64,000 nt of DNA, taken from positions 296,236,001 to 296,300,000 of the forward strand of contig OZ024741.1 of the NCBI GenBank assembly GCA_964016885.1, given 5' to 3'. The notes beneath the pieces were generated by a model. It was given only the letters and a program-made list of their open reading frames with translations, did no database searches and had not been told where the DNA came from. This stretch comes from Eledone cirrhosa. Taxonomy: Eukaryota. This document shows, piece after piece, positions 9,450 to 51,089 of the stretch. The translations under genes and the position numbers were made by a program. Position 1 is the stretch's first letter. Each line of letters starts with the position of its first letter.

Positions 9450-9572
9450 GGAGGTGAGTTTTATTGTAGTACAATAAAGCAATGCAGATATCGGATAAGA
9501 AGCACTCTACAGTTTGTAGGACTGGAGTATACATAATATAAGATCAAAAGATGGTTAAAGGAGTTCCATGTA

Positions 9573-9639
9573 TTTTATTATGCGCATTTCAAAAACAAAC
9601 ATCATCATGCAATAATATTTGTGTTTTCATCAGATAAAA
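9573..9639 (-). ncRNA. minimal type I hammerhead ribozyme (family A)
   Basis: Reverse complement of the HHR at 10682-10748. Confidence 0.8.
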
Positions 9640-10681
9640 CAGGAGAACATGATATGAAGGCTAAAAAACACTTGTGGATAGTGCAGTTTTAAATCAACAT
9701 ATGAAAAGTGGTTTTAGATTGATGTGTGATATTGGGAAAAATATTTTATTTAGAGAGGGGGGGGGGGGTGTGGAAAGGATGAAAAAGGGGAGGAGATGAG
9801 AGGGAGAGATGGGTGATAGAGAGAAAGAAAGAGATAGTTTTTATAACTGAGAGGAGATATATTGTTTTACATAGAGAGGTTGAAAACCGTTGGAAGATAA
9901 TGTATAAATTAAAAATTTGAAATTAACGAAGGGAGGATATGTGCGAGGAAAGAATATTTTATTTATGGAGGGGGTGGTGGAAAGGATGAAAAAAGGGGGA
10001 GGAGATGAGAGTGAAGGTGGAGAGGGAGAGATGGGTGATAGAGAGAAAGAGATAGTTTTTATAACTGAGAAAAAAATATATTGTTTTACATAAATTAAAG
10101 GAATTTGAAAATTAACGAAGGGAATTTATGTATGAAGATAGAGAGAAAAAATAATAATTGTGGATGAATATTCTAACGTCAAAAAAAGTGTGTGTTGATA
10201 AGTATTGTGGCAATTTCAAAATTAACGAAGAGAAAAATTATTAAGGTTTGTGTGTAGAAGGATTTGAGAAAAATAATGTGAAGTTAAAGTTTGTATATTG
10301 AAGGAATTGATAATATATGCGAATAAAGAGTTAATATGTATTAAGAATGAGTTCGTTGATGGGATTTATGATAGAGAGAAAAAATAATAATGATTGCGGA
10401 TGAATATTCTAACGTCAAAAAAATAAATGTATATGTTATGAAGGATTTTACAAGGTGAAGATAGAATGAGGGTAATGAGTAAACAAGTATTATAGAGTGT
10501 ATAATGCCCTTTAAAGTAAGGTGGGAAGATGGGTATATTTTAAAGAGGTGTATGTATATGTGCCTCTCTAAATAAAATATTTTTCCCAATATCACACATC
10601 AATCTAAAACCACTTTTCATATGTTGATTTAAAACTGCACTCTCCACAAGTGTTTTTTAGCCTTCATATCATGTTCTCCTG

Positions 10682-10748
10682 TTTTATCTGATGAAAACAC
10701 AAATATTATTGCATGATGATGTTTGTTTTTGAAATGCGCATAATAAAA
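10682..10748 (+). ncRNA. minimal type I hammerhead ribozyme (family A)
   Basis: ttttat-CTGATGA-aaacacaaatattattgcatgatgatgtttgttttt-GAAA-tgcgca-TA-ataaaa, about 200 nt upstream of the RT ATG. Confidence 0.85.
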
Positions 10749-10954
10749 TACATGGAACTCCTTTAACCATCTTTTGATCTTATATTATGTATACTCCAGT
10801 CCTACAAACTGTAGAGTGCTTCTTATCCGATATCTGCATTGCTTTATTGTACTACAATAAAACTCACCTCCTACATTAACTTGCTCCTTAACGGTTGAGC
10901 GCTTACTCTCATATTGGATACCTTTTGATGGTCCTTCACCTCTTCTTCTACAAC

Positions 10955-11809
10955 ATGGATTATTACAACATAACCAATTCAACTAAAGACATTCCTATAC
11001 CTGGTAAATCTGAATTCACCAAACTTCTTATTGAAAAAACTGACTCCTTCGTAAGAAGACTTAGATGGACAGCCTATTTCTATGACCAGCGCCTTAAAGG
11101 GAACTTCCACACCAAAGAACATAACTTCCTCGATCATCTTTTTAATTCTAGACGAAATCCTCCTTCCAACAAAAATCTAGTACAATTCGAGGAAGAATTA
11201 ACTAAAATAATAAAAAATCTTAAATTCAAGAGATACCCTTACAAAGGACAAGAGCACCTTGTAAATCTCAAGAACACAATCTCTAACCTAAATTCCTCAA
11301 AAAATGTTTTAGTCCACTCTGACAAAACCAATAACTTATATGGTATTTCCAAGGATAATTATAACAACCTTATCCTAAAGGAACTTAGGAAAAAGTATCG
11401 TAAAACCAACCATGAAAATTTAGAATACATAAACCTTGAAGCCTCTGAGATTATGTCAAAACTTGGCATTGAAAAAAAGACCGAACCATTCCTCCCAAGA
11501 ATTCCGAGGATAAATCTCAAGGATCACAAAAACAATTTTCGCACTGAACTACCTGTTAGATTAATCGCCCCCTCTAAATCTGATCTGGGGGTTGTTAGTA
11601 AAGCCATCTTGGATAGAATTATCCCACAGGTTAGTTCTAATTGCTCTTCTTTGAACCTAAATTTATGGTTTGGTACTTCTGAGGTGATTTGCTGGTTCAA
11701 CAAATTGGATAATAAAAACAAACTAAAATTTATTCAATTTGATATTGCCAGCTACTATTCCTCCATTTCGCCTTCACTTCTCAATAATGCTCTATCTTTC
11801 GCACTTAAA
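10955..11809 (+). pseudogene. Naiad-type Penelope-like reverse transcriptase, 3'-truncated
   Basis: STKDIPIP..., RRLRWTAYFY, VHSDKTNNLY (DKT variant of PLE DKG), KDHKNNF...RLIAPSKSDLG, FIQFDIASYYSSI (RT motif A). Homology stops before YxDD. Confidence 0.85.
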
Positions 11810-12499
11810 ATAATAATAAAAAAGAGAGAGTGTCTTATGCGAAGGGGCGTCTAATAGGCCGGAAAATACGATATATTATAATTTAGCGTTAAAAAAATTT
11901 ATATTGCCACGAAAAAAGCCATTAAAAAATCGCGGATATTTACAATTTCGCGAATATACGTTGGTTTCCATGAACAATTATTAGGTTCTAAGGAAAATTC
12001 TGCGAATTAACTGGGACCGCGAATGCCGGTGGTACACATCGGTCACATCGGTCACCGTCGAGACCTCAGGTCTCCTCGGACCCCGTACAGCCCAGCTCCT
12101 CCACAAAATTGGAACATCAACAGTCCGCCTGAGGAAGGAGCCCGCGGGTTGCGGTGGTTGTTGCAGCGTGTGTCCACGGAAATGCCCAAACACCGCCCCG
12201 CTCTAGGTCCAGAGCCCATGACCGTCTCCCCTTCCCTCTACCTTGAGTCCTTGCTTTTTCCCTCCTTTTCCTCTCATTTATGACATTTAGAGTCCTTTCT
12301 TCTACTTTCCCATACAGCCATATCTGCCATTCTTTACCCCTTCCGCTTTTTCTTAATTACTTAATTTTGTTTTTATCTTTCTTTTTCATATTTATGTAAT
12401 TATCAATGATTTTTGCTTGTTAATATTTAATTGAAAATCAATATCTAATTGTATATTTCTTATCATGGAATAGTTTATCATAATTATGTTACATTATAA

Positions 12500-17839: not shown

Positions 17840-19392
17840 GGAGGAGGTTATAGTTCACTTGAAGCATTGTGTAATGAGGTATAAACGTTTGAATATGTAT
17901 AATAAAGCCAAAACAATGCAGGTATGGACATAGAAAAAAGAATGCAATTGCAAAAGATATTGTTGACAAATCGTCTTTTACCTTAGATTTATTTAAATGT
18001 CCTTAATTTTCGAGATAATATCTCTTCTTCAGAGGGAAATAAAGGTCTCAAACCAGCCTTCTAAATATCTTGCCAAACCATGCACCATGCTGACAGGAAA
18101 TAGTATAGAGTATCTGTTTTATCTCTAATGTCAAAGAGTTAAAATTAGATGGATAAAGAGTAGTCTCCCTTTAAAAGGGGTTTGTTTAGGGTTTTTTTAA
18201 TTTTTTTTATATACATGCCTGTTTAAGTGTGTGGGAGAATGCATGAAGGTGTAAGTATGTGAGTGTGTGTGTGTGAGTGTGAGAAGATAAGTCTATTCGT
18301 AAATGTGGGGGATAGGTGTTATCTGGTGTTAGAACTGGTTTTGTGTGTGTATGTGTGAGAGAGAATAAGTGGAGGTGTAAGCGTGTGTGTGTGGGGGGGG
18401 GGGGGGGGAAATATGGGGCTAGAAGCCCTATCAGGTTATAAATTGGGTGTTGAGTTCTAGTCTATTATTGATTGGTGGTTGTGTTTTATCTATAATTAGT
18501 GCTTCCTTAATTCTAAGATTGCCGAGGTTTCTTTCCTTAGTTTCTATCCTAACTGTTATGGTTTTGTCGGTGTTTTTGCATTTAACTAGGTGTTTCTTAA
18601 ATGAGGAAGCGTTAGTATTGAGGTGTTCTTTTATTCTTATGTGGAGTGGTCTGGTGGTGCTACCTACGTAGAAGTTGTTGCATTTGTCACACTCTAGTCT
18701 GTATACGACGTAAGCCTGGTGGCATAGGTCTGTGTCGTTGATGGGGCAGTTGGCTAGTCTGCAGCAGTTGTCATGTCTGGTGGAGTGTCTTTTGGTTAGC
18801 TGTCCGCGTAGAGAAGGACCTGAGTGGGCCAGTTGGATATCTAGTCCCTCTCGTCTGATGGCTCTGCGGATGGCTGTTGTTGTTTCTTCACTGAAGTGTG
18901 GGAGCTTCAGGAAGCAAGTGTTAGTGCCTCGGGTGTGGTGTCCTCTGTTCTTTCTGGCACGGTTTGTGGTGGATGTCGTGTATCCGTTCAGTTTGAGTAC
19001 TTCCAGGAAATGTGTGGTGTGTGTGTCTCGGTCTCTAGCGTCGGTGCATTTGTTCCGGATACGTGCCAGTTCGTTCCTTATGTATCCGAACTTGGCACCG
19101 AGTGGGAGGGCCGATCTGAAATGTACGAACAGGTCCCTGCTGGCGGCTTTTTTTATAAAATCAGGTGTGGATGTTGCCTTCCTCTGTTACCCTGAGTTGG
19201 AAGTCCAGTAGGGATAGGGATCCGCGGTCATCGAGGTGTTCCATGCTGAACTTTATACTGGCGTCCATGCTGGAGAATGTTGTGTATATTTTATCTGCCT
19301 CCTCACGGGATGATGTAAGGATGAGTATGTCATCTACATATCGGGTGAAGAAGGCATGGGAATGGCAGGTGTTGAGGGCTCGGCATTCTAGC
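17840..19392 (-). mobile_element. 5'-truncated Penelope-like element with RT, GIY-YIG and a 3' HHR
   Basis: Coding remnant at 18431-19391. HHR-like tttccct-CTGAAGA-agagatattatctc-GAAA...TA-aggtaaa at 17977-18039. (TA)n on both sides. Confidence 0.85.
18431..19391 (-). pseudogene. Penelope-like RT C-terminus + GIY-YIG endonuclease (not in ORF track)
   Basis: Manual translation: [12 protein letters not shown]...SLSLLDF...HT*FYKK / frameshift / HFRSALP...LKLNGY...CCRLANCP...VVYRLECDKCNNFYVGSTTRPLHIRIKEH...LRIKEALII...PPINNR. Confidence 0.9.
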
Positions 19393-30583: not shown

Positions 30584-33500
30584 CTACAGGCTGATATAGA
30601 GAGAAGGCCCATTCACTCGGGCCATTCTCGCTACTTTCACCCACCTTTCATAAAACTTGCTGGGGTAGAGCACCTCTCTCTCCATTCTGATCCTTCTTCT
30701 AAAGTGGTACTTGAAAAGAAAGACCAGTTGTTGGCCGGAGAAAAAGGTGTCTGACCTTTCAACCTTGTCCACCATACAACTTCTTTCGCCATGGCTATCA
30801 CACAGAGAAAACAGCCTCTCCTTCGTTTTTGAAAGGGGGAGGCTGTTTGATCGTGACAATGTTCTCGGTGGTCAACCGGATTGGTCCCACTCGCGACAGT
30901 AGTCGTTCCACATAGCCCCACAGGTCAGCAACGCCCGGGCAGTGTACGAACGAATGCGTGTGCGACGGTTTCCTCGTCACACACGCATCTCGAACAGATC
31001 TTCTTCGAGGGGTCCCTACCCGGGCGCCCGTGTCTGTAGAGCTTGTCCCGAACGGGTAGAGCTCCTCGGTAACATTGCCAAGCCAGGGACTTTTGGAAGT
31101 TGTCCATCGGTCCCGGGCCTAACGTCCTACCGAACAGACTGGCCAGCTCGTCTTCCTCCATGCCCAGAGCCTCTCCGAGAGCATCGTCGCACTTACTGCG
31201 CACCAACCCTCTATAGAATGTTGAGGTTGAGTCTCCACTGTTTGCCGGATCCGCTTGCCAGAAGGCCGTGAGCGCCTGGGCACATTCAATGTGCCAGTCG
31301 CCCACTTTTCTCGGACTTTGCTTGACCCAGGATTGCAGCTCGGTGAGTGAGACGAGTCTCGGAAAGGCTCGCCTCACAAACAGGGCCCACACCGGCTGAC
31401 CGGTGAGGAATACCTGGAGGTGCCGTAGCCTTAATGCGTGTCTACGCATCGTCAGCCACGGCACCCCCAGCACTCCGCTCGAAGGGTGTTGACAGCAGAT
31501 GGATCTTCTCACCAAAGGAGCCCGCTTCTTCCAAAGAAATCGGAAGAGCGCGCACTCCATTTTGACGAGTGTTTTCTCTGGGCAAGGCACGACGGTCAAG
31601 CGGTAGTAGATGACGGACGCTATATAAGCGTTCGCCACCTCCGCTCGACCTTTCAGGGATAGTTTGCACTCGGCCCACTTCTGGGCGAGTGCAAACACCT
31701 TGTCCGTTACCTCGTCCCAGTTTTTCACCACCTGGAGGTCCGGTCCGAACCAGACCCCGAGCAGCTTCACCGGTCCCTCCGTCCAGCGTCCGACGATGCC
31801 ATCGGAGGGCATCGTTTTGCCCCTCCACGTCCCGAGTTGCAAACCGACGGACTTGTCCCGGTTCAGCTTGGCTCCTGTGAACCTTTCATATTCCTCCAGT
31901 AAGGTGCTGATCTGCCCGATTTCCGAGGCGCACGACACCATTACTGTCACGTCATCGGCGTAGGCCGACACCGCTTTCCGCAATCCCGGTTCCAAGGGGA
32001 TGCCCTGCAACCGCTCCAGCTTCTGCAGTAGTGGCTCGAGAGCCAGCACATACAGGAGGGAGGAGAGAGGGCATCCCTGTCGGATGGATCGCGTGATTTG
32101 GAACGGCTCCGAGAGGTAGCCGTTCACCTTGACCCCCGAGCAGGTGTTGCTACTGTGTATTGCAGCAATCCAGCCCCTGAAAACGGGTCCGAAGCCTGCC
32201 GCCGCGAGCACCGCATCCAGGTACCGATAGTCAACCCTATCGAACGCCTTAGATTGATCCAAGTTGATCAGGGCCCCACCAAAGCCGGGTTCGTTCCCTA
32301 CCCTCTCTACGATGTATCGCATGAGATGGAGGTTGTCGTGTATGGACCTGGACGGGATTGCGCATGTCTGCGCTTCTCCCACCAGGTTCCCGACGACAAG
32401 CGCCAACCTCTTCGCTAACACCTTGGCCAAAATCTTTAACTCTGTGTTTAGCAGAGTTATGGGCCTGAAGTTATCTATGTCATCCCCCTTGTTCTCATCC
32501 TTCCTCACCAGCGTGACTACGCCCTTGGTCACAGAACTGGGAATTCTCTCGTTCTGTTGCCCGTTGCAGTAGACCGCCTCGAGGAGACCGGAGAACAAGC
32601 CCGGCATCGCTACATAAAGTTCGTATGGTAGACCATCGAGACCCGGAGATTTGCGTTTGCCGCATTGGCTCAGCGCTTCCCCTATTTCAGCGGCTGAACT
32701 GGGCCTATCGCAGGACTTCGCCTCCCCGTCCGAGAGCCGCGCCAGACCGTCGAGGTATGGACCGAAATCTATGGCCCCACCCGGCCTGCCGGCCCTCCCG
32801 AACAGTCGTGCAAAGCGCCGTTGAAAGGCCACGCTCATCCGCTCAGGTTCAAGGATCACGCGTCCATCCTGGTCCTTCAAAGACCGAATCGTGGACTTGT
32901 TTCCACTTTTTGCCTCTGTCACTCGGGCCCAGCTAACAGCTTTGGCTCCCTCGTTACCCAGAGCACGTATTTTACTCCTGACAACGCAGCCCTCGTGCTT
33001 CGCATCAAAGAACTGGTCTAGGGCCGTTCTTGACGCCAGCACGCCGGCCACGTTGCCACTCCTAATCGCCTCTTCTACTCTATTTGTTAATTCCCTTTCA
33101 GTTCTATTCCTATCTGATGCTAATTCCCGACTAAAACCTATCGATTCTATTCTAATTTCTCTCTTGAGAGAGCCCCACCACCTGCTGTCGACAATTGCCC
33201 CCGTCAAACGCTGCTTAACTAGTATGCTAATCTGCTTACTGTAAGCTTTGTTTGTCGGTAAAGACAAGTTTAGCTTCCAGTAACCGGGTCCCTGTCTATG
33301 AGTTCTATCAAGGTTGACCACTCCGGTCACCAACTTGTGATCCGAATAGTCAACCATGAACATTCGTGAACAGCTTAATATGTCCCTATCCTTATTTCTA
33401 ACTAGGAACCTATCCAGGTACGACCTAGATGTTCCGCTAAGATTAGTCCACGTGCACAGTGGCACAGTCGGAAAATCTAGTCGATATCTATCGGCCAGAT

Positions 33501-34017
33501 CAAATCGGCCGATTAATCGTTTGAGGCTGTTACACCCCCCTCTATCGGGACATGCCCCTACATAGTCCCAACGTGCATCCAGGATACCATTCCAGTCCCC
33601 CACTAAAAGCAAGGAGCGAGACGTTCCCAGGAAATTCTCCAGGCGTCGGAAGAAGTCCGGTCGCGGTGTCCCAGATGGAGCATACGCTGCCACCAGCCTG
33701 AAAGCTCCACCTTCACCACTGCCGACGTCTAAAACCACCAGTAGACCCTCCGGGTCCAAGTGTACCTTCTGTGTGGCAAGACGCAGGTATTTTCGCAGCA
33801 GAACGACAACCCCACCCCCACCCCTCGGCTGACAGAGAGATGCGTAGATCTCAAAGTCGTCGAAGATGGGGGCCAGTTGGCGCTCGCTGCTGATCCTGGA
33901 CTCGCAAATAACCATTACATCCACTCTGTGCGACCTGAGGTCATTTAAGAGTTTGCCCTGTTTCCAGGACATCCCCAGGCCGCGTGCATTCACACATCCA
34001 ACTCTTATATTGGCCAT
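30584..34017 (-). pseudogene. Tx1-like ORF2 (endonuclease-reverse transcriptase); 1030 aa open, C-terminus frameshifted
   Basis: VNARGL, GDWN, SYLDRF, SDH (APE); KSPGLDGLPYE, FRPITLLN, DQSKAFDRVD, RQGCPLS, YADD (RT); CSRC...ETVAHAF.HC. Frameshifts after about 30940. Confidence 0.9.
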
Positions 34018-34059
34018 GTTGGTGCTGAAGACTTAAAAAGGAAGAGGAAAGGAAATTAC

Positions 34060-48422: not shown

Positions 48423-48427
<5 letters not shown>

Positions 48428-48608
48428 AACAAGTAAGACCCCGACGGCTGAGCTCAAGCCGTTTCGACGGCTAATTCAGAATTAGCCGTCGAAACGGCTT
48501 GAGCTCAGCCGTCGGGTCTTACTTGTTCCTATTACCCACTCTACTACCCTAAGTATTGAGTACTTTGGTGCGTTATGGTCCACCTGGTTCCTTACCACAT
48601 TTCCTTCG

Positions 48609-49000: not shown

Positions 49001-49448
49001 TGAGTATCGCTATTAGCTTTCTCTGTTAATGTATTAAGTATTATACTCTTGGATGGCCTGACATGAAATTTCCAGATATTTAGGTATGACCGTCTTTATT
49101 TATTTTTTATATGAAATATTGATTGATTCTTCCTGTATCTCATGTCTGTTATTTTGCCTGAGAAAATATTTATATGAATACTTAAATAATACGTACATAT
49201 ATTTTTTTATTTTATTATCCAGTTGAGTTCTCAACACGTGGTTTGGATTCCTAACAGGGTTCAAAGACCTGCGTGTATATTATTTTATAATTTACGATAA
49301 CCTCGCCTTCCCATTTGGGGACAATGTGAGAATTTTTTTTTTGAAGGACTGCTGGACTTTCAAACTTAGCGGTTCTTCGAGCACTGACAGTGAATATCGC
49401 TGAATATTAATATCGATGTAGTTTTCTATATTGATATTGCCTGGGCAT

Positions 49449-49569
49449 TCCCCTGAAGAGTTATAAGAGCCCACTTGCAAGTAAATCTGTTGATCATATG
49501 CAAGCTTCTACATAACTTGGACTTTTTCTCCCACCTTGTAGAAATCTTATAACGAAACGATCGTATCGA
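49449..49569 (+). ncRNA. type I HHR with branched ~95-nt stem II (diverged copy, stem I damaged)
   Basis: CTGAAGA-gttataaga...tcttataac-GAAA-cgatcg-TA. Confidence 0.7.
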
Positions 49570-49800
49570 AAGTGAGATTTATTTAATTATGTCTCATATA
49601 AAATAATACAGCCAACTATCCACATAATCGTTTCTACTTTTAGGCACAAGGCCAGCAATTACCCAGTGCATATCCATATAATACAATATAGTTAGCACCC
49701 CAAACGTATAATTGGGATTGTACTAAGGTATATCCTAATGTTTGTTGAGTGAGACGGAAGCCGGTCGGAGTATTGCTTAAAGTTTTCTCTGTTAATGTAT

Positions 49801-49838
<38 letters not shown>

Positions 49839-49940
49839 GTGGTCGGAGTATCGCTAATAGCTTTCTCTGTTAATGTATTAAGTATATATATATATACTTA
49901 ATACATTAACAGAGAAAGCTATTAGCGATACTCCGACCAC

Positions 49941-50018
<78 letters not shown>

Positions 50019-50195
50019 ATACATTAACAGAGAAAACTTTAAGCAATACTCCGACCGGCTTCCGTCTCACTCAACAAACATTAGGATATACCTTAGTATA
50101 ATCCCAATTATACGTTTGGGGTGCTAACTATACGTATTTTGCGGATGGCCAGTTATATTATTTTATATGAGACATAATTAAAATACACCTCTCTT

Positions 50196-50317
50196 TCCAA
50201 ACGATCGTTTCATTATAAGTTTTCTACAAATTGGGAAAATAATGTCCAGGTTATGTAGAAGCCTACACATAGTCCGAAGGAATATATGTAGGTGGGCACT
50301 TATAAATCATCAGTGGA
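50196..50317 (-). ncRNA. type I HHR with branched ~95-nt stem II
   Basis: tcca-CTGATGA-tttataagt[cctacatat..atgtgtagg][ttctaca..tgtagaa]aacttataat-GAAA-cgatcg-TT-tgga. Confidence 0.8.
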
Positions 50318-50915
50318 TGCTCGACAAATATCGATATAAAAACAACCTTACCGCTATTAATGTTCAGCCATGGTACCCCTCCGTGCTAGAATGACCGCCA
50401 AATTTGAAATTCCAGCAGTCTCACTATGAGAAATCTCACACTGCCATCAAGCGGAAAGGGGAGGTTATCGCAAAACGTAAAAGAATAAAATAATATGCAC
50501 GCGGGTCAATTATTTTTTTCAATAATTTTAACCATGCGTGAAGAACTCAATTGGATATAAAAAATAAATATATGTATGTATTATTTATACACGCATATAG
50601 GTATTTTCTTAGGCTAAAAACAGAGATAAGATACCAGAAGAACAATCAATATTTCATACAAAGAATAAATACGGAAAGTCATACCTAAAAAGTATCTGGA
50701 AATATTCATCCCTGGCCAAATCAAGAGTATAATATTTAATACATTAACAGAGAAAACTTTAAGCAATACTCCGACCGGCTTCCGTCTCATTCAACAAACA
50801 TTAGGATATACCTTAGTATAATCCCAATTATACGTTTGGGGTGCTAACTATACGTATTTTGCGGATGGCCAGTTGTATTATTTTATATGAGACATAATTA
50901 AAATACATCTCTCTT

Positions 50916-51037
50916 TCCAAACGATCGTTTCATTATAAGTTTTCTACAAATTGGGAAAATAATGTCCAGGTTATGTAGAAGCCTACACATAGTCCGAAGG
51001 AATATATGTAGGTGGGCACTTATAAATCATCAGTGGA
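50916..51037 (-). ncRNA. type I HHR with branched stem II (tandem copy)
   Basis: Identical to 50196-50317 at +720. Confidence 0.8.
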
Positions 51038-51089
51038 TGCTCGACAAATATCGATATAAAAACAACCTTACCTATATATATATGTATAC

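Follow-up and report, generated by a model that had tools for sequence, protein, structure and literature searches.

The question raised by this locus is whether a hammerhead ribozyme can carry a branched domain of about 95 nt in its stem II, and what element would bear such a ribozyme. The stem II of hammerheads is normally a small hairpin, and standard searches limit stem II accordingly. The DNA analysed is a stretch of 64,000 nt from Eledone cirrhosa, referred to as the window. We consider it probable that the locus holds a type I hammerhead with a conserved, covarying three-way stem II of ~95 nt, located on an abundant non-coding repeat that is likely a non-autonomous derivative of Hydra-clade Penelope-like elements (PLEs), and predicted to undergo self-cleavage after GUH mainly as a dimer.

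Hammerhead motifs were found at the three positions at which a preliminary description of the locus had placed them, with cores starting at 49453 (+), 50313 (-), and 51033 (-) (Table 1). In these motifs, GAAA is followed by the CGATCG palindrome, U, the cleavage base, and the 3' strand of a stem I of 4 to 5 bp. Stem I of the B copies ends at 50196 and 50916 on one side and at 50317 and 51037 on the other, so the coordinates of the preliminary description bound stem I exactly. Copy B2, the predicted dimer partner of B1, has the same orientation and lies 720 bp upstream of it. Private defects were present in all three window copies and were confirmed by three contig runs of one sample. Stem I of copy A is broken, with CCCC/TCGA versus TCCA/TGGA in the family, and both B1 and B2 have GAGC in place of the family GGGC.

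Table 1. Positions of the hammerhead parts, host element copies and further long-stem examples (window positions unless a locus is named)
Feature	Position	Strand	Remark
Copy A, whole hammerhead	49443..49569	+	5' GGGC 49443-49446; predicted cut between 49565 and 49566
Copy A, stem I 5' strand	up to 49452	+	broken in copy A
Copy A, core CTGAAGA	49453-49459	+	
Copy A, stem II insert	49460-49553	+	94 nt
Copy A, closing helix	49460-49468 with 49545-49553	+	
Copy A, junction GCCCA	49469-49473	+	
Copy A, hairpin 1	49474-49504	+	
Copy A, hairpin 2	49506-49543	+	
Copy A, GAAA	49554-49557	+	
Copy A, palindrome CGATCG	49558-49563	+	then T and A; position 17 = 49565
Copy B1, whole hammerhead	50196..50322	-	GAGC 50322-50319 (family: GGGC); predicted cut between 50200 and 50199
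Copy B1, stem I	50317-50314 with 50199-50196	-	
Copy B1, core CTGATGA	50313-50307	-	
Copy B1, branched stem II	50306-50212	-	95 nt
Copy B1, closing helix	50305-50298 with 50220-50213	-	U.U at 50306/50212
Copy B1, junction strand	50297-50293	-	
Copy B1, hairpin 1	50292-50262	-	
Copy B1, hairpin 2	50260-50222	-	
Copy B1, GAAA	50211-50208	-	
Copy B1, palindrome	50207-50202	-	
Copy B2, whole hammerhead	50916..51042	-	core CTGATGA 51033-51027; 95-nt insert; predicted cut between 50920 and 50919
Subfamily-A non-coding element copy	49002..49803	+	3' end into (AT)n; other-repeat fragment interrupts at ~49624-49680
Short inverted repeat, two element 3' ends around (AT)n	49828..49938	.	centre of tail-to-tail arrangement
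Subfamily-B element	50016..51072	-	partial tandem, 720-bp unit; holds B1 and B2
Internal copy of element 3' end, then tail and next unit	50700..50760	-	tandem junction; predicted RT start region
Further families, ~95-110-nt stem II, CGATCG palindrome	L061:1481-1639	+	
Further families, ~95-110-nt stem II, CGATCG palindrome	L082:1485-1641	-	
Further families, ~95-110-nt stem II, CGATCG palindrome	L125:7319-7479	-	
Further example of the same list	L123:2943-3097	-	
Further example of the same list	L124:3018-3173	-	

The stretch between CTGANGA and GAAA had been described as a closing helix plus two hairpins, and this architecture, with a 5-nt junction strand, was recovered in the 94- to 95-nt inserts of all three window copies. 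When the insert regions were folded in isolation, exactly the three-way junction was obtained as both the minimum free energy (MFE) structure and the centroid, with z scores of -4.22 and -5.41 and none of 200 shuffled sequences folding as well. The hairpin 1 strands proposed as compensatory between the diverged copy and the B copies (cttgca/tgcaag versus cctaca/tgtagg) were present as quoted. The closing helix strands (gttataaga/tcttataac versus tttataagt/acttataat) were also found, but the outermost B-copy pair is a U.U mismatch at positions 10.1/11.1. Hairpin 2 (ttctaca/tgtagaa) was conserved as claimed, but its covariation was almost nil, with one of seven pairs changed in one sequence. A U.U at the base of stem II was seen in 62 of the 154 genomic copies with an exact core; it occurs naturally among hammerheads (PMC3088659), and among the core contexts that File S2 of PMC8557442 lists for Hydra elements, the one with U at 10.1 and 11.1 (ctgatgat...tgaa) is the most frequent.

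Genome-wide searches covered 3.0 Gb, and the branched signature gave 3,064 matches versus none for a reversed-pattern control. An anchor in the 3' part of the element gave 3,140 matches, again versus none for its reversal, and DNA searches returned 2,074 and 2,113 candidates, of which 40 each were scored. A total of 166 distinct copies in 27 clusters were extracted, and 26 copies were aligned, comprising 2 window copies, the medoids of the 14 clusters that had more than one member, and 10 copies chosen by eye for diversity. RNAalifold, run on the 26 copies without a given structure, returned the full type I hammerhead with stems I, II (both hairpins), and III, and 10 of its 34 pairs were changed on both sides; in the named structure such changes affected 13/42 pairs, including pairs of stems I, II, and III. 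The covariation score was 0.188, compared to 0.102 in shuffled alignments (0/500) and at most 0.057 when the structure was slid, and since this shuffle ignores kinship, independent tip pairs on a tree of natural copies were compared instead (about 8.7 pairs per draw, 200 draws). For the whole structure, 7.7 co-differences per draw were counted versus 2.2 with permuted partners (median p 0.003), and for stem II only, 5.7 versus 2.0 (median p 0.017; p < 0.05 in 70% of draws). The compensatory changes read from the window copies were thus upheld in the larger alignment.

The covariation signal came mostly from hairpin 1, with 5/10 pairs, and single clear swaps were located at the inner end of the closing helix, in stem I, in stem III, and in the small apical stem of hairpin 2 (A-U in 20/26 copies, U-A in 6/26). 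Across subfamilies, the columns that vary numbered 0/11 in the core, 2/16 in the closing helix, and 0/14 in hairpin 2, compared to 16/18 in the flank and 17/21 in the loop. The closing helix and hairpin 2 are mostly invariant and hence show little covariation; with so little variation in the former and at the base of the latter, their pairing rests on folding energy and conservation, and part of this conservation was built in, since many aligned copies came from search patterns fixing CTGANGA, TTCTACATAA, and TGTAGAA.

The element copies share a common 3' end ~150 nt past the ribozyme and have variable 5' truncation, most of them being dispersed and 5'-truncated. Among 106 scored 3' ends, 79 ran into (AT)n, 10 into a tail or the next unit, and 17 into other sequence. 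Unit lengths were 711-767 or 989-1009 bp, and 13 of 14 same-strand neighbour pairs were spaced 711-1009 bp apart, with one at 1417. Tail junctions numbered 331 versus 0 in the control, with another ribozyme within 900 nt in 28 of 30. No protein hits were obtained by tblastn in 10 full units (E up to 1), and no same-strand Hydra ORF followed the tail in 30 tail-junction loci. The fixed 3' end, 5' truncation, (TA)n target, partial tandems, tail, and inverted copies are together the anatomy of a non-autonomous PLE; pseudo-LTRs, tails, and inverted copies have been described for PLEs (PMC8557442). At L561 and L562 (G000:C2:312.27-312.28 Mb), at least 14 branched ribozymes were also found in a tandem array that mixes ~745-bp and ~1,000-bp units.

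Within the window, the element of copy A is arranged tail to tail with the B element. The B element has terminal direct repeats of 346 bp with 98.8% identity (50007-50352 and 50728-51072), its 3' end at 50016 lies in (AT)n, and it is 5'-truncated at 51072, likewise in (AT)n. The joints of the subfamily-A copy skip 49623-49680. The 3' end of this copy (49691-49803) is identical to the neighbouring B copy at 112/113 positions, for which a template switch, conversion, or an assembly chimera are the alternatives. Elsewhere in the window, a perfect inverted repeat of another repeat family is located inside (AT)n (48426-48530), a 1,035-aa LINE ORF that has both an EN and an RT domain was found at 30925-34032 (-), and a PLE GIY-YIG fragment at 18431-19186 (-). 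The latter two ORFs were considered as partners and rejected, as neither had a link to the element.

An exact core (C3UGANGA9, G12AAA15.1, U16.1-H17) was present in 154 of the 166 distinct copies, CTGANGA being part of some selection patterns. Among these 154, all 4/4 stem I pairs were formed in 144, the palindrome was perfect in 133, and position 17 was non-G in 153 (U 58, A 56, C 39). Stem III shifted between perfect palindromes across subfamilies (CGATCG, CAATTG, CGGCCG, and one CAGCTG), and this retention of palindromes points to cleavage as a dimer. The 8-nt palindromes were calculated at -10.0 kcal/mol as a duplex versus +2.4 as a monomer hairpin. A palindromic stem III has been described as the dimer signature of PLE hammerheads (PMC4209133; PMC6765202), and an unstable palindrome combined with tandem copies, as found here, corresponds to the dimeric PLE type.

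The ends of insertions were compared with the predicted cut. In a set of 90 copies with a 3'-part anchor, the 5' truncation fell exactly at the predicted cut in 2 and 7-15 bases before reaching it in 12, and 67 continued through the site. At least 37 distinct junctions were counted by eye among the first 100 matches listed, with 5-6 at the predicted cut site and ~5 each also at +1/+2, -4, and +17, giving no unique peak at the cut, and such counts are confounded by AT microhomology. As the insertion ends mostly read through, most templates would have been uncut or religated; a circular intermediate would account for this, and so would a ribozyme that is slow or dead. A dead ribozyme would be a hammerhead-derived motif that no longer cuts and whose structure is retained as a signal for binding or packaging by the Penelope-like RT protein, a reading we hold to be unlikely given that the 11 catalytic positions are fixed, positions 7 and 17 vary as catalysis allows, stem III switches solely from palindrome to palindrome, and a related family has the known U3-A8 compensatory core (PMC4209133). 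Its support comes, besides the read-through and the lack of a clear truncation peak, from an active fold that is often not the favoured one, from the conservation of hairpin 2 in sequence beyond pairing, from a young Hydra family whose core has A in place of U4, so that activity may be dispensable, and from HHR mutants that were no block to insertion in vitro (PMC11167929).

A further helix, absent from the preliminary description, was noticed between a conserved 5' GGGC just before stem I and the junction GCCC. It was paired in 90.8% of cells, with a duplex energy of about -9 kcal/mol, none of the four GGGC columns varied, and compensatory change was found in 0/5 of its pairs in the 26-copy alignment. 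In nested folding of the 26 copies, GGGC/GCCC won in 14 versus 11 for the closing helix. Stem I had a median probability of 0.02, and hairpins 1 and 2 were formed in 23/26 and 25/26 copies. Full-length copy A folded no better than its shuffles (z -1.67, 15/200), and the constrained hammerhead fold was 3.9-8.7 kcal/mol above the MFE in 6/6 copies. The earlier suggestion that the extra domain might stabilise the minimal core finds no support in this folding, in which the helix competing with the closing helix is the more often dominant one. The alternative suggestion, that the domain might bind the RT, would fit the near-invariant sequence of hairpin 2, part of whose invariance derives from the search patterns.

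Two interpretations of the GGGC/GCCC pairing are possible, a pseudoknot and an inactive fold that competes with stem II. The usual geometry of stem I-stem II contacts is the opposite of a stem II that is longer than stem I. The competing fold is favoured here because stem II, of 8-9 bp, is longer than the 4-5-bp stem I. We regard as quite improbable that the helix forms alongside stems I and II as an activating pseudoknot of a fast, tertiary-stabilised ribozyme that is not gated. Both the geometry and the missing compensatory changes argue against it; the conservation of GGGC and GCCC speaks for it, as do the stem I-stem II pseudoknots that are common and activity-raising in natural hammerheads (PMC3088659), and nested folding cannot score pseudoknots, so its 14/26 result leaves room for one. 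A neutral-passenger origin, in which loop II captured a structured piece that is tolerated solely because its fold does not get in the way, is very improbable: engineered hammerheads do tolerate large stem II inserts (PMC2777235) and other long-stem families of the genome have a different, rod-like insert, but the length was kept at 94-100 nt in 154/154 exact-core copies, conservation of hairpin 2 and the junction exceeds that of the flanks, short-stem forms of the family have not spread (2 genome matches, one a deletion copy), and several families converge on ~95-105 nt.

For this non-coding element, we propose that read-through transcripts of partial tandems would carry two cores 711-1009 nt apart, that the 8-nt palindromes of the two cores would pair, and that cutting would release a unit-length RNA, which may circularise. 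As no RT is encoded by the element, any such activity would have to be supplied in trans; a Hydra-clade RT/GIY-YIG protein would nick (TA)n and, with uncut or circular RNA as template, begin reverse transcription ~150 nt downstream of the ribozyme. The inserted domain would most likely slow or gate folding of the core, with an early GGGC/GCCC helix possibly competing with the closing helix until a partner copy or protein is present, and hairpin 2 is the likeliest protein contact. As large stem II inserts work in engineered ribozymes (PMC2777235), activity is plausible and calls for no new chemistry. One tested PLE hammerhead needs protein to cut, and insertion in vitro was unaffected in HHR mutants (PMC11167929).

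The RT with DKT, CxCx5C linker, and C-terminal GIY-YIG of autonomous Hydra-clade elements were not found in the branched element; the DKT and CxCx5C motifs occur in other families of the same genome. No ORF-bearing branched copy was found among the listed upstream flanks of branched copies, and no autonomous branched partner in 79 loci including 30 GIY-YIG and 30 Hydra EN hits (4 strong matches). The candidate driver is therefore named from the similarity of element ends, where the last 40 bases of the element match the end of a young intact Hydra family at 33/40. This family (L523-L530, e.g., L523:1659-3797 +) has 713-aa open frames with DKT and CxCx5C motifs, present in 8/8 fetched copies, which were picked for that length, and may tentatively be named the best driver candidate. 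Its repeat has a short hammerhead-like core, the one with U4 changed to A, and a Pfam search of the 713-aa protein with E up to 0.1 found no domain. Another young Hydra family (L128:446-2152(-), L488-L517) has 96-99% protein identity, frames up to 785 aa, and a long 3' UTR, with no CTGANGA-type core among the matches listed. An apparent linkage at L128 and L542 was due to separate insertions.

The pattern CTGANGA-N80..110-GAAACGATCGT gave 6,554 genome matches versus 5 for the reversed pattern and includes other long-stem families. Most of the matches listed (the first 100 of 6,554) belong to such families, with stems II of 95-110 nt forming long rods with internal loops. Three rod-like families, D, E, and F, were distinguished, D and F with Hydra ORFs, and two single examples, G and H, seem to be branched in other ways. 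Families D, E, and F share the internal-loop motif TGAT-A-N-TT-TGTA with TACA-TAG-ATC, which resembles hairpin 2 of the branched form in reverse order. Family D was found downstream of same-strand endonuclease hits in 8 loci, and family F at both ends of a full, frameshifted Hydra-clade element with DKT and CxCx5C motifs. The aligned core of family F is the U3-A8 form, located upstream of a CTGATGA sequence that is not the core. The element ends of D and F differ from those of the branched element, and the branched-form covariance model gave no score to the rod families, leaving a parallel solution or very distant relatives. At 9470-11830, the window itself also has the 5' part of a Hydra-clade element. 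It shows inverted repeats and a motif resembling a hammerhead, whose palindrome is TGCGCA and whose 36-nt stem II is of intermediate length; this motif was located at 10688 (+), 9633 (-), and also 2717 (-).

With more than 6,500 matches whose core halves are 80-110 nt apart, in several architectures, the number of PLE ribozymes has likely been counted too low, and claims of ribozyme-less PLE clades are open to retest. A more far-reaching reading, unlikely in our view, is that of a natural gated hammerhead in which the branched stem II and 5' GGGC would act as a switch, off until the RT protein binds hairpin 2, thus coupling RNA processing to mobilisation; it would belong to an overlooked class of PLE hammerheads with ~100-nt stems II, and some supposedly ribozyme-less elements would carry one. 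The separable conserved domain and the competing helix offer direct mutational handles on the role of PLE hammerheads.

The preliminary expectation that standard descriptors may miss the branched form was borne out. No Rfam hit reached the gathering score in the window, and when the region, a typical copy, and a short-stem deletion copy were searched with E allowed up to 10, no hammerhead family was among the results. As this natural copy with most of stem II deleted was missed too, stem length is not the sole reason. The miRNA and snoRNA hits of Rfam were rejected as sub-threshold matches to AT repeats. Spaced-pattern hits in metagenome and viral contigs were attributed to chance, since among the matches listed stem I and the cleavage triplet were present in 0/80 and 0/80, compared to 36/39 control copies of the Eledone cirrhosa genome, and the branched covariance model found 0/80 in metagenome loci among the matches listed. 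The main survey of hammerhead variants in PLEs is reportedly that of Lunse et al. No description of a natural multi-way stem II was found in the literature covered, nor in the parts of PMC10085705 and PMC12542633 that it included; long-stem forms may be present in the alignments of Lunse et al. (RNA Biol 14:1499) and in the supplement of PMC4209133.

Hammerheads in PLEs and non-coding retrozymes were already known, and the branched form is, as a structure, a well-supported, real, and apparently new variant of the hammerhead, with catalysis predicted. Engineered stem II aptazymes (PMC2777235) likewise have a folded domain in stem II that controls stem II formation; they are artificial and ligand-gated, whereas gating of the branched element is a prediction. 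The minus hammerhead of CChMVd has a long helix II that escapes standard patterns, with branching not mentioned in the relevant part of PMC3705267. The discontinuous Clec2 hammerheads (PMC2950038) are, like the branched form, natural, carry long insertions, and escape standard patterns, but the search for them allowed insertions in loop 1 or loop 3 and not in stem II.

The metazoan non-LTR retrozymes (Cervera and de la Pena 2020, PMC7229834; PMC7761336) also consist of tandem units that are non-coding and AT-rich and carry a single type I hammerhead, their mobilisation is likewise attributed to PLEs, and axolotl HHR_Amex2 also has a U.U at the base of helix II. Their units, however, measure 150-450 bp and hold canonical ribozymes in which loops 1 and 2 make contact, and their circular RNAs have been demonstrated. 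The units described here, known from DNA, measure 711-1009 bp and have a non-canonical stem II, which places the branched element outside this class. The minimal metazoan PLE hammerheads (Cervera and de la Pena 2014, PMC4209133) share the helix I of 4-5 bp, helix II of 7-8 bp, palindromic helix III, dimer model, and U3-A8 core variant, seen here in family F; their helix II ends in a small loop, and the part of that work considered does not describe a multi-way junction.

The closest likeness was found to the type I hammerheads of Hydra-clade PLEs (Craig et al. 2021, PMC8557442), which have the same topology near the element 3' end, the same ctgatgat...tgaa and ctga.gag...cgaa core contexts, and a short self-complementary stem III, in elements that also show (TA)n insertion, partial tandems, tails, and inverted copies. 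In that study, core halves were searched at 7-17 nt apart, 'half cores' at 35-50 nt were noted, and the longest stem II region in the whole File S2 table is ~53 nt (PLE-X1_sMoe). The listed Hydra stems II have 3-7 bp and loops of 3-10 nt, whereas the branched element has a stem II of 94-100 nt on a carrier without an ORF.
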